Shown: one piece after another, positions 1,664-4,548 of the stretch
Position numbering within the stretch: the first letter of the stretch is position 1
Layout: every line of letters starts with the position of its first letter
Assembly: GCA_030606485.1 (NCBI GenBank)
Contig: JAUWGH010000005.1
Span: 30,001 to 62,000, forward strand
DNA: 32,000 nt
Direction of reading: 5' to 3'
Source of the DNA: Promethearchaeota archaeon
GTDB lineage: Archaea; Asgardarchaeota; Lokiarchaeia; Sigyniarchaeales; SOKP01
Translations under genes and position numbers: made by a program
Notes under the pieces: generated by a model
What the model was told of the DNA's origin: nothing
Seen by the model: only the letters and a program-made list of their open reading frames with translations
Databases searched by the model: none

Positions 1664-3052
1664 TTAATTTGAATTTATGTAATTTACAATTTCTTTTCTT
1701 TTTTTAAGAGATTTTTTTGCAGCATTTTTAATCATAATTTCCATTTGTTCGTAGTCTTCCGGAGTTTTTTCTCCGATCTGCTTTTTTATTTTAGTGTAAG
1801 CAGATTCTCTAAATCTTGGAAGAATTGTTGCAGACTTTTTATCTGCAAATATAAATTTCACTTCATTTGATTCATCAACAAGACCAATCTCAGAACATTT
1901 AATGCCAATATCTTTTAAATCATTGATTATATTTTCGCTTATCTTTTCATCACAATATATCAGAAGTGAATCTAACGATATACCTAAATAATCTACTCCC
2001 GTTTTATTTAGAAGATCTAAGACTCTGGGATTCACTAATTCTTTTACTTTTTTCTCTTGAATTAATACCCCGCATTTTGCTTCATAATTAATCTCATATA
2101 GATCTCCTCTCAAACCTCCATTAGTCACATCACACATGCAATGGATCTTATCTGTGTAATCAGAAGACAACAATTTCTCACACGCTTTTAAGAATTTAAT
2201 ATTCAGAGTTTCCTTAACAACCTCATGATTACCTGAGTAAATCGCAGTAGTTGTGATCGTTCCACCTCCAGCTCCCTCAGTCATTAATATTTTATTGCCG
2301 GGAATTATATTTCGTCTAGCTAAAATTTTTTTACACACACCTACTGCAGCTATTCCCCCCACAAGCCGATCTCCAATTACCATATCACCCCCAATTCTTA
2401 AAGTAGACCCTGCAGTTATAGGAACATTAGTTAATTCGGAAATTGTCGAGATACCAGCCATAAAATCAAACAATTTGCTAATATCTGCGTCATCTCCTAG
2501 ATGAACATCTACCATAATTGAAATCGGTTTTGCTCCTTTAACGTATAAATCTCGAAGTGCAGCCCTTGTTACATGAAATCCGCAAATAAATGGAAAATCA
2601 CTTAATCGAGAGTGAATCCCTTCCATTTTCGAAACAATTAATACATCTGAACTGGTGAATTTTTTTCCTCTGAAATCACTATAATTCCCCAATTGAATTG
2701 CCCCAGCATCATCAAGAGAAGTGGGCGCTAAAAATGCCTTACTTTTCGTAATAGAAAGCTCAGCTATTAATTTATGCACAAAAAAATCTCCTAGACCCCT
2801 ACACCCAACTCCTTGTTTTCCAATTGAAACATTAGCTGTAGGAATTTCGAGTAGATTTTTAATAAATTTATTTCTTATCGAATTTGTATCACTCTTTACA
2901 CATTCTTCATAGATTGCATTTGATAATAATTCTGCATCTTGAGAAGATATATTTTTGTAATCAAGATATTCTTGCTTTAATCTTTCAATGATTTCAATTT
3001 TAGAATTTTGTTTTTTAAGTAAATTTCTTGTAAGACCTTCTAAATCACTCAT
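1664..3052 (-). CDS. AIR synthase-related (PurM/HypE-fold) protein, archaeal family of unknown function
   Basis: N-terminal DLEG, GVGCRGLGDFFVH, LDDAG, EGIHSRLSDFPF, GSTLRIGGDMVIGDR, DVTNGG and LGISLDSL. Confidence 0.8.
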   Translation of the reverse strand: MSDLEGLTRNLLKKQNSKIEIIERLKQEYLDYKNISSQDAELLSNAIYEECVKSDTNSIRNKFIKNLLEIPTANVSIGKQGVGCRGLGDFFVHKLIAELSITKSKAFLAPTSLDDAGAIQLGNYSDFRGKKFTSSDVLIVSKMEGIHSRLSDFPFICGFHVTRAALRDLYVKGAKPISIMVDVHLGDDADISKLFDFMAGISTISELTNVPITAGSTLRIGGDMVIGDRLVGGIAAVGVCKKILARRNIIPGNKILMTEGAGGGTITTTAIYSGNHEVVKETLNIKFLKACEKLLSSDYTDKIHCMCDVTNGGLRGDLYEINYEAKCGVLIQEKKVKELVNPRVLDLLNKTGVDYLGISLDSLLIYCDEKISENIINDLKDIGIKCSEIGLVDESNEVKFIFADKKSATILPRFRESAYTKIKKQIGEKTPEDYEQMEIMIKNAAKKSLKKRKEIVNYINSN

Positions 3053-3149
3053 TTTTGTTTCACAAATTTAATAAACTTAAAAATTAATGATATGCTAGAA
3101 TATTTGATAGTAGTTATTTATTTTTGTCAATTGCCTCGGTGAAGTTATA

Positions 3150-4157
3150 ATCAAAATCACTATAAAAACCCCGTGTAGGGTACACTTCTCTTTAATTGAT
3201 GAGAATGGGTATACTGGCAGAATTGATGGTGGAATTGGTCTTATGTTAGAATCCCCTAATATTGTGATAGAGGTTTCAGATAATTCTGATGGGTTAAAAA
3301 TTGAAATTGATGAACCTCATGATGGATTTTTAACAACCATTAAAGAAAAAACTGAGGCGATAACAAATGCTCTTAATGTTAAAAATAAGAATTACCATTT
3401 CATAATTAAGGAATATTATCCAGAACATTTAGGAATTGGATCAAAAACTCAATTAAGCTTAGCAATCGGTTTAGCAATAGCTAAATTAGAAGGGGCAAAT
3501 TTACCCATAGAAAAGATTACCAAAATAGTTGGGAGAGGAGGTACATCCGGAATTGGGTGGAGGGGTTTTGAACAAGGTGGTTTTATCTTAGATGCGGGGC
3601 ACGATTTCGGTAATGGAAAAGAGAAAGAAACTTACTTACCTTCTTCAGCCTCTTCATCAGCAAATCCAGCTTTAACTCTCATTAGATACCCTATTCCTGA
3701 GAATTGGAGGTTTGTAGTAATTCTTCCTAAAGTAAAACAAGGAGCTCATAACCAAGAAGAAGTAAATATTTTCCAAGAATTTGCGCCCATTAATCGAGAA
3801 GAAGTTAATGAAGTTTCCCATCAAATTATCATGAAAATTTTACCGGGATTAATAAAAAACGATTTAAATTGCTTTGGACAAGGAATAAAACGGATTCAAA
3901 AAATTGGTTTCAAGAAAATCGAAATAGAATTACAAGATCTAATCGTTAAAAAACTAATGAAATTTTTAGAAGCCGAAGGAGTAAAAGCTTATGGAATGTC
4001 CTCTTTTGGACCATGCATAGTTGCAATTACTGAAAATGATGAGTCTGCAAACATTTTAAAACCTAAATGTGAAGAATTTCTTAAAGACTTCGGAGGCACT
4101 GTGATAATTGCAAAACCTAATAATACTGGAGCAGAAATAAAAATTGAAGAAGAATAA
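3150..4157 (+). CDS. mptG: beta-ribofuranosylaminobenzene 5'-phosphate (RFAP) synthase, GHMP kinase family; probable ATC (3150) or ATA (3147) start
   Basis: The frame extends upstream of the ATG at 3243 as KITIKTPCRVHFSLIDENGYTGRIDGGIG, the family N-terminal PxRxH...GRxDGGxG motif. Also HLGIGSKTQL, GRGGTSGIG, GGFILDAGH and GMSSFGP. In-frame TAG at 3111; GGTGA at 3138-3142. Confidence 0.9.
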   Translation: MKITIKTPCRVHFSLIDENGYTGRIDGGIGLMLESPNIVIEVSDNSDGLKIEIDEPHDGFLTTIKEKTEAITNALNVKNKNYHFIIKEYYPEHLGIGSKTQLSLAIGLAIAKLEGANLPIEKITKIVGRGGTSGIGWRGFEQGGFILDAGHDFGNGKEKETYLPSSASSSANPALTLIRYPIPENWRFVVILPKVKQGAHNQEEVNIFQEFAPINREEVNEVSHQIIMKILPGLIKNDLNCFGQGIKRIQKIGFKKIEIELQDLIVKKLMKFLEAEGVKAYGMSSFGPCIVAITENDESANILKPKCEEFLKDFGGTVIIAKPNNTGAEIKIEEE

Positions 4158-4548
4158 CACTGAAGAAAAAATTAAAATTCATTTTGCAAAAGATCTTACG
4201 GATAAAGAAAGGGCAACATTTGAGACAGGTATTAAATTAGGTGCCCTTTATCACATTTTATGCGGAATTCCTATTAATACAAATGAAAATGTCATTAAAT
4301 CGATTGAAAATGGTATAGAACAAGCAATATCTTGTCAACCTTACGTAAAATCTGTAAAAATAAACCTCAGAAGAGAAAATTTAAAAGGAAAAAAAGAAAA
4401 TGAATTCGATTACGATGAAATCTCTGGTAAAACAATAGAAGCTGACCTAGTAGTTCAATTTAAGAAGGTTGAAGTTAAAGCAAAAATAAAATGGATAGAA
4501 GATTTTGAATACCCCTTGATGTATATTGCAGAACTAAATGAACTTTAA
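4144..4548 (+). CDS. mptD: Archaeal dihydroneopterin aldolase (MptD family)
   Basis: TDKERATFETGIKLGALYH, AISCQPYVKSV and WIEDFEYPLMYI; TTG start overlapping the mptG stop. Confidence 0.85.
   Translation: MKKNNTEEKIKIHFAKDLTDKERATFETGIKLGALYHILCGIPINTNENVIKSIENGIEQAISCQPYVKSVKINLRRENLKGKKENEFDYDEISGKTIEADLVVQFKKVEVKAKIKWIEDFEYPLMYIAELNEL

Follow-up and report, generated by a model that had tools for sequence, protein, structure and literature searches.

A probable AUC start codon behind a Shine-Dalgarno element in mptG of a Lokiarchaeial genome, with further probable AUH starts across its family

The mptG locus and its predicted product

The analysed window is a stretch of 32,000 nucleotides of Promethearchaeota archaeon (Lokiarchaeia; assembly GCA_030606485.1, contig JAUWGH010000005.1, positions 30,001 to 62,000; G000:C5:30001-62000), and the element under study is the initiation codon of its mptG gene, which encodes a predicted beta-ribofuranosylaminobenzene 5'-phosphate (RFAP) synthase. 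The features of the locus are collected in Table 1. The genome (G000) comprises 3.75 Mb at 29% GC on 13 contigs with a completeness score of 100%, and it was compared with genomes of 3–5.5 Mb, all from one order.

Downstream of the closing stop codons, the mptG frame reads TTA TTT ATT TTT GTC AAT TGC CTC GGT GAA GTT ATA ATC (from 3114) and continues with AAA ATC ACT ATA AAA ACC CCG TGT AGG. The last of these stops is replaced by AAG in a congener (G001) and in a metagenome contig (L180), where the frame is closed by the preceding TAG. An earlier note on this DNA had claimed that the N-terminal RFAP synthase motif lies upstream of the first ATG and that no ATG, GTG or TTG separates it from the upstream TAG; its coordinates for the TAG (3111), GGTGA (3138–3142), ATA (3147), ATC (3150) and ATG (3243) were all exact on re-reading, and no canonical start was found in frame between 3114 and 3242 of the window. 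The sole canonical-start open reading frame (ORF) for the gene is thus 3243..4157 (304 aa, N-terminal peptide MLESPNIVIEVSDNSDGLK). The open stretch that precedes its start measures 43 codons, which corresponds to the 95th percentile among the ORFs of this genome.

Read from ATC 3150, the predicted product has 335 residues and begins M-K-I-T-I-K-T-P-C-R. It scored 349.3 bits against NCBIfam NF040726 (beta-RFAP synthase, equivalog; cut-off 328), with profile positions 1–327 of 327 mapping to residues 3–330, and 306.9 bits against TIGR00144 (cut-off 113.5). Full profile coverage including the N-terminal motif (T-P-C-R-x-H-x-S-L-I-D...G-G-I-G) requires a start at or before 3156; 31 conserved residues lie upstream of Met3243. 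Residues 4–301 aligned with solved RFAP synthase and ForT chains (8aoz, 8ap0, 6yqq; E 1e-27), and residues 4–31 matched the structured N-terminus of these chains.

Table 1 Features at the mptG locus (positions of the window)
Feature	Position	Strand	Remark
ATC, proposed mptG initiation codon, read as Met by initiator tRNA	3150..3152	+	orthologue alignment, clade conservation, profile
Shine-Dalgarno element GGTGA	3138..3142	+	complementary to 16S rRNA 3' tail ...GGAUCACCUCCU
mptG coding sequence	3150..4157	+	335 codons + TAA; profile and structure matches; single copy
ATA, adjacent alternative start	3147..3149	+	possible minor site; ACA in G002/L003
ATT, start used in two 345-aa NCBI nr records	3120..3122	+	rejected as shared start
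In-frame TAG, upstream closure of the mptG frame	3111..3113	+	part of TGA TAG TAG, 3105–3113
First canonical ATG	3243..3245	+	start of the 304-aa product stored in public protein collections
Intergenic spacer of mptG and the divergent PurM-fold gene	3053..3149	.	97 bp; contains the putative ribosome-binding site of mptG and presumably the promoters of both genes
PurM/ThiL/HypE-fold gene	1664..3052	-	ATG start; divergently transcribed
Archaeal dihydroneopterin aldolase gene (MptD-type, PF04038)	4144..4548	+	TTG start; overlaps mptG by 14 nt

Choice of the mptG start codon

A canonical start is present in each of the 19 orthologues that represent other genera of the family. In 17 of them it is an ATG (TTG in three) opposite ATC 3150 or one codon upstream; the remaining two, which come from two genomes of a single genus, start at an ATG further upstream and are thereby extended by 10–11 residues. 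Among 80 mptG loci from metagenomes, ATG stands opposite ATC 3150 in 36 and one codon upstream in 38, and TTG is found in two. The suggestion that a start at ATC would give a typical family N-terminus (M-K-I-T-I-K-T-P) agrees with the orthologues of other genera, which begin M-K-[IV]-R-I-T-T-P-C-R.

None of the eight sequences of the clade to which the window belongs has a canonical start. This clade consists of the window, three other species of the genus (G001–G003) and the metagenome contigs L179–L182 (76–98% protein identity). GGTGA is invariant in all eight and GGTGA-N7-ATC is present in seven, with ATT in place of ATC in L181, so that 3150 is the sole position with an ATH codon (ATA, ATT or ATC) common to the whole clade. 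Since the same arrangement recurs in eight independent assemblies, an assembly or sequencing error was ruled out.

GGTGA is complementary to the 3' tail of the 16S rRNA, with a duplex free energy (dG) of -7.6 kcal/mol, and therefore fits the Shine-Dalgarno (SD) role that had been proposed for it. Its GGTG begins at -12 relative to ATC 3150, which is the modal position before the first ATGs of G000 (counts: 26 at -12, 5 at -9, 0 at -18). When SD elements were scored by their longest 4-mer match, 48% of ATG starts came out positive; given this noise, due to the AT-rich sequence, duplex energies together with tests for GGTG at a given spacing were used instead.

The earlier note had named both ATA 3147 and ATC 3150, and the evidence now favours ATC. 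A start at ATA, instead of or along with ATC, would lengthen the product by one residue; ATA lies in frame behind the same GGTGA, is kept in seven of the eight clade sequences, and is frequent among the validated ATH starts of G000 (eS4, hypA). Against it, the codon is ACA in one congener (G002/L003), where ATC is retained and a start at 3147 is thus excluded; GGTG stands at -9 from ATA, a spacing about five times rarer than -12 before ATG starts; and the orthologous ATG is aligned with ATC rather than ATA, albeit one codon upstream in part of the sequences. The ACA variant rules out ATA 3147 as the shared start, and its use in the window is left with a small probability. The codon ATT 3120, which would add ten N-terminal residues for a product of 345, is the first start codon of translation table 11 in the frame, is used by two records of NCBI nr (P0006, P0007), and is followed by an open frame in most clade members. 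It has no SD before it, may sit within the promoter, and its ten extra residues lack a counterpart in any orthologue; moreover, L181 carries an in-frame TAA at the position of the window's TGC 3132–3134, which separates ATT 3120 from the SD and rules it out as the shared start. We consider this start very improbable. With both other candidates removed, one by the ACA variant and one by the TAA variant, 3150 is the shared start.

Two further readings would leave the N-terminal motif untranslated or the gene without function, namely a true start at Met3243 and a decaying pseudogene. The canonical ORF does begin at 3243, and most database entries have this form. However, no stop codon or frameshift was seen in the eight clade sequences, and all six variable sites among congeners in 3150–3242 are synonymous third codon positions, which indicates that this segment is translated. 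Residues 4–31 align with a structured N-terminus, as described above, and a genome search returned no second mptG copy with a normal start, which leaves the present one as the sole copy in a genome scored as complete. Either reading has a remote chance of being correct.

Termination-reinitiation after an upstream ORF (uORF) was considered as well, as the window, L180 and L181 contain a 16-codon uORF (ATG 3092 to TGA 3140–3142) whose stop codon lies inside GGTGA, 7 nt from ATC. In L182 the uORF frame has no ATG, GTG or TTG, GGTGA-N7-ATC is kept nonetheless, and other ATH-start genes need no uORF. The absence of the uORF from L182 ruled this mechanism out, and we give it practically no weight. 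On the comparative evidence, mptG is very probably an intact gene that starts at AUC 3150, with the codon placed by the SD.

The state at mptG appears to be derived. The ATG-start orthologues (n = 88) have a median SD dG of -0.5 kcal/mol, with one alone at or below -6, and all AUC/AUU loci have values at or below -7.4; a weak start codon paired with an SD is hence the derived state, and the family ancestor would have had an mptG with ATG and without SD.

Some deviating mptG loci were observed outside the clade. The contig L236 (Ga0114921_10000552), from another lineage of the family, has ATA at the mptG start, eight codons before the P of T-P-C-R, with TAG two codons upstream and no clear SD seen; its sisters L209 and L257 have ATG, which indicates an independent change from ATG to ATA in L236. 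Within the mptG match in G036:C83 (L030) there is one TAG and one TAA. The match in G030 and G034 (L026/L027) falls into two parts (residues 2–46 and 58/85–332) of a single open frame of 375–399 aa; this points to an insertion into the N-terminal domain.

Probable ATH starts across the genome and family

Stop-to-stop ORFs of the whole genome G000, with antisense shadow ORFs removed, were compared with 1.18 Mb of a genome from another genus of the same family (G020); a genome-wide alignment of proteins to orthologues had been suggested in the earlier note. The comparison gave 660 reciprocal-best pairs, in 337 of which the first canonical start of the orthologue fell within the alignment. The G000 codon opposite that start was ATG in 207, TTG in 24, GTG in 11, ATT in 16, ATA in 14 and ATC in 3 pairs. 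The use of ATA, ATT and ATC was proportional to their abundance.

Eleven of the 337 genes had ATH-only starts, with neither an upstream canonical codon nor one within 8 codons: mptG, eS4, hypA, Rpo4/F, aIF6, a Ras-family GTPase, an E2-like UBC protein, an M24 peptidase, an FtsX-like permease, a glycosyltransferase and a coiled-coil protein. The reverse comparison yielded 11 ATH-only genes in G020, different from those of G000, and in each genome the ATH-only share was ~3% of the orthologue-checked genes. Where the orthologue started with ATG and no canonical alternative existed, the aligned G000 codon was ATH in 16 of 19 cases (binomial p 1.8e-7); the expected share, taken from the codons other than ATG that face internal ATGs, is ~26%.

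SD elements played no part in defining the ATH-only set, and an SD with dG at or below -6 was found in 10 of its 11 genes vs 26% of 163 ATG starts (Mann-Whitney p 1e-4 for the energies of ATH vs ATG starts; p 1.7e-5 with both genomes pooled). By duplex energy, TTG starts in G000 showed no SD enrichment over ATG starts. A reading-frame test, which counted GGTG at -14..-10 before ATH in the open stretch preceding the first canonical start, gave 46/2467 in frame and 15/3501 out of frame for G000 (odds ratio (OR) 4.4, p 6e-8), and 25/788 vs 7/1123 for G020 (OR 5.2, p 2e-5). In the neighbouring family, G032 (800 kb) gave 3/472 vs 3/639 (OR 1.4, not significant) and G030 (327 kb) 1/176 vs 1/267 (OR 1.5, not significant); no ATH excess was thus detected in these two partial genomes, which are underpowered for low rates, and the family-level boundary is drawn from two genomes inside and two partial genomes outside.

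Per genome, ~35–67 ATH-start genes (from the frame excess, a lower bound) to ~110 (3.3% of ~3,400) were estimated. Taken together, these comparisons support SD-dependent AUH initiation as the route by which ~2–3% of genes in this archaeal family would be served. Relaxed AUH and UUG initiation throughout the lineage had been proposed beforehand; the AUH part holds within the family (11/337 genes, 16/19 codons, OR 4.4), whereas the UUG part does not stand out, as TTG starts at 24/337 (~7%) are ordinary, and the extension to the neighbouring family finds no excess in the two genomes sampled. Relaxed initiation fidelity in the lineage may be one way to read this pattern.

The starts of eS4, aIF6, the Ras-family GTPase, the E2-like protein and Rpo4/F (L104–L108; contigs C2, C5, C10) are ATA or ATT and align with ATG or TTG of the G020 orthologues; this group includes components of translation and transcription as well as eukaryote-like signature proteins. 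Two further genes likely start with ATC. In a Rag/Gtr-type GTPase (L092; G000:C10:129290-130246, -), Pfam position 1 falls at residue 3 and the first canonical start lies 17 codons after the ATC, so that its use would remove the P-loop; in an XPD/Rad3 helicase (L099; G000:C11:31261-33240, -), the first canonical start follows after 107 codons and lies beyond the Walker A region.

Initiation machinery and proposed mechanism

The sole initiator-type tRNA found in G000 has the anticodon CAU, A1:U72, a GGG/CCC anticodon stem and an intron. As its anticodon is CAU, the reading of AUH codons would involve a mismatch at the third base. A changed anticodon in the initiator tRNA was ruled out on this ground, while a second initiator may be hidden among undetected tRNAs. 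ARAGORN called 38 tRNAs and Rfam RF00005 31 above the cut-off, despite the completeness score of 100%, and the initiator-type tRNA is the one tRNA detected with anticodon CAU. Because so few tRNAs and a single CAU were found in a genome scored complete, non-canonical introns probably split many of its tRNAs. A tRNA-SeC(tca) and a "tRNA-Stop(tta)" were among the ARAGORN calls as well.

The gene for the initiation factor aIF1 (SUI1) has an unusual start of its own. No canonical start precedes the CPxC zinc knuckle in 14 of 18 sampled family genomes, and in two (G013 and G017) the entire ORF contains zero ATG, GTG or TTG. In the 14 genomes the gene begins at ATT, ATC or ATA, six codons before CPxC, and a conserved AAGGTTGTGA element precedes this codon. 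Five genomes of the window's genus were sampled; four of them (G000–G003) have ATA, with an in-frame GTG four codons upstream, within the SD-like element, and this GTG is absent in G004. In G000 (L151:1411-1425; G000:C6:14403-14417), the ATA occupies 1423–1425 and the GTG 1411–1413. Residue differences specific to the aIF1 of this family are inseparable from phylogeny.

For mptG, we propose that the SD, which would lie inside the transcript, pairs as GGUGA with the 3' tail of the 16S rRNA and thereby sets the P site of the small subunit 7 nt downstream, on AUC 3150. The ordinary initiator Met-tRNA (CAU) would pair with A and U and tolerate the third-base mismatch, methionine would be inserted, and initiation would be less efficient than at AUG and modulated by aIF1. 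In the window's clade, the SD and the weak AUH codon would form a derived pair.

Several points weigh against this proposal. To our knowledge, AUH codons are generally held to be unused in archaea, with AUG, GUG and UUG alone serving as starts. The evidence assembled here is comparative sequence analysis throughout, two NCBI nr records of mptG choose ATT 3120, and the presence of ATA 3147 in seven of eight clade sequences makes co-use of that codon possible. An AT-rich run (3114–3125) lies ~30 nt before ATC; TATA-like motifs peak at this distance before non-SD ATG starts in this genome, and the same geometry at mptG, ambiguous at 29% GC, means that its transcript may have a short leader without the SD. 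Finally, aIF1 of Sulfolobus solfataricus rejects AUU mRNA in vitro (PMC4705826).

The leader geometry bears on a rival reading, in which the mRNA would be leaderless or have a very short leader, AUC or AUA would be picked near its 5' end, and GGTGA would be a promoter-proximal element. Besides the AT-rich run, this reading is favoured by the ATG-start mptG orthologues without SD and by the low prevalence of SD elements in a cultured Lokiarchaeon (PMC7531240). Against it stand the strong SD in 10 of 11 ATH starts vs 26% of ATG starts and the dependence of the in-frame ATH enrichment on SD spacing. Leaderless initiation is strongly dependent on an AUG at the 5' end; judged from the sequence, mptG has an SD at optimal spacing and a codon other than AUG. 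We assign this reading a quite small probability and retain SD-placed initiation at AUC 3150. Across G000, GC content dips and TATA-like motifs are mildly enriched at -36..-28 from non-SD ATG starts, which suggests that many of its mRNAs may be leaderless or very short-leadered.

IF3 in bacteria (AUU start) and eIF1 in eukaryotes (weak context) autoregulate via their own weak starts (PMC4705826). Together with the rejection of AUU by Sulfolobus aIF1, this makes a link between the aIF1 level and the set of ATH-start genes plausible by analogy. The genome G030 has an ATA-start aIF1 but no ATH excess (327 kb), and the ATH habit of the family is therefore not explained by the aIF1 start alone. As a speculative extension that we regard as unlikely, SD-backed AUH starts could form a distinct class of weak starts, ~60–110 genes per genome, tuned collectively by the concentration of aIF1, an archaeal "initiation-stringency regulon"; on the same tentative footing, its members could include mptG, hypA, eS4, Rpo4/F, aIF6, the Ras- and Rag-like GTPases, the E2-like enzyme and XPD. 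If true, such a regulon would resemble eIF1-controlled near-cognate initiation in eukaryotes.

Representation in public databases

The exact 304-aa product from Met3243 is present in a public protein collection, and this form accounts for 13 of the 15 members listed from its 37-member protein cluster, as anticipated by the earlier claim that gene callers would truncate such genes; these 13 lack the 31 conserved residues. The two 345-aa records in NCBI nr begin MFVNCLGEVIIK, which corresponds to a start at ATT 3120, so that the pipeline that rescues mptG appears to pick the very codon excluded by L181. Standard gene callers (Prodigal, GeneMarkS-2) allow ATG, GTG and TTG starts alone. Because no other codons are considered, an estimated ~2–3% of proteins from these Asgard genomes would be stored truncated or missing, and this set includes eukaryote-like signature proteins (small GTPases, the E2-like enzyme) whose database sequences are the basis for cloning, folding and phylogenetic trees. 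For expression of the RFAP synthase, the gene should be cloned from 3150, not from 3243 or 3120.

Neighbouring genes and intergenic region

Five substitutions were found across three congeners in the intergenic region, none of them inside GGTGA or ATC. Because the PF04038 gene overlaps the mptG stop by 14 nt, mptG and mptD would form a methanopterin operon opposite the PurM-fold gene, and the MptD-type neighbour is consistent with the RFAP synthase activity predicted for mptG (condensation of p-aminobenzoate with phosphoribosyl pyrophosphate). The G020 orthologue of the PF04038 gene has an ATG start at a roughly equal position. A sigma-70-like TTGTCA-N16-TATAAT (11/12) spans window positions 3124–3151, across the SD and ATA/ATC; in an AT-rich archaeal genome, this near-perfect bacterial consensus is presumably due to chance.

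Comparison with known systems

The protein encoded by mptG shares the GHMP-kinase fold of RFAP synthase and ForT (8aoz, 8ap0, 6yqq) by alignment, N-terminal segment included; nothing odd was seen in it, and the start codon alone is unusual. Archaeal GUG and UUG starts likewise deviate from AUG, are decoded by the initiator tRNA, and are common in G000 (TTG 24 and GTG 11 of 337). They differ in that the mismatch falls on the first base and all gene callers accept them, and TTG starts in G000 lack the SD enrichment that ATH starts have.

In the literature searched, no study that treats archaeal AUH starts systematically was found. Near-cognate initiation sites were set aside in ribosome profiling of Haloferax (PMC7261190), and in an Asgard archaeon (Kariarchaeaceae) the tubulin gene AtubA was given a single "rare ATT start codon" with a ribosome-binding site (PMC13394414). 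Like mptG, AtubA is an Asgard gene truncated in GenBank, with an upstream ATH behind a likely ribosome-binding site, argued from N-terminal homology and fold. It is, however, one anecdote in a Methods section and from a different Asgard class, whereas mptG is backed by an eight-way comparison and genome-wide statistics.

The closest known match to mptG is provided by bacterial AUU and AUA starts behind strong or extended SD elements, i.e., infC and pcnB of E. coli and infC, cvfC1, ccpN and citZ of S. aureus (PMC13009471, PMC4705826). In both, the codon is a third-position near-cognate for AUG with an SD at optimal spacing and is conserved among relatives. Reporters with AUU or AUA starts reach ~10% of the AUG level in S. 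aureus (PMC13009471), and a low, tunable output would by analogy be expected at mptG. The differences are that mptG is served by archaeal aIF1, aIF1A and aIF2 without IF3, that its AUC is the rarest of the three AUH codons, unlike the bacterial AUU and AUA, and that ATH starts number dozens per genome here vs three or four in bacteria. The S. aureus starts were assayed by reporters, and the mptG start is predicted from sequence.

Near-cognate initiation in eukaryotes (CUG, GUG, ACG, AUU, with stringency set by eIF1 and eIF5) shares with mptG a tolerated mismatch of the initiator tRNA. In both, efficiency is expected to depend on the homologous fidelity factor (aIF1 or eIF1), whose own mRNA is weak-started. 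In contrast to eukaryotic near-cognates, which are selected by scanning and Kozak context, are mismatched mostly at the first position and serve uORFs or N-terminal extensions, the mptG start would be placed by SD pairing, its mismatch lies at the third position, and the ATH codons described here are the sole starts of main ORFs. With its place among the closest relatives of eukaryotes and its apparently routine use of third-position near-cognates, coupled to SD strength, the family would be a natural system in which to follow the tuning of aIF1/eIF1-type fidelity.

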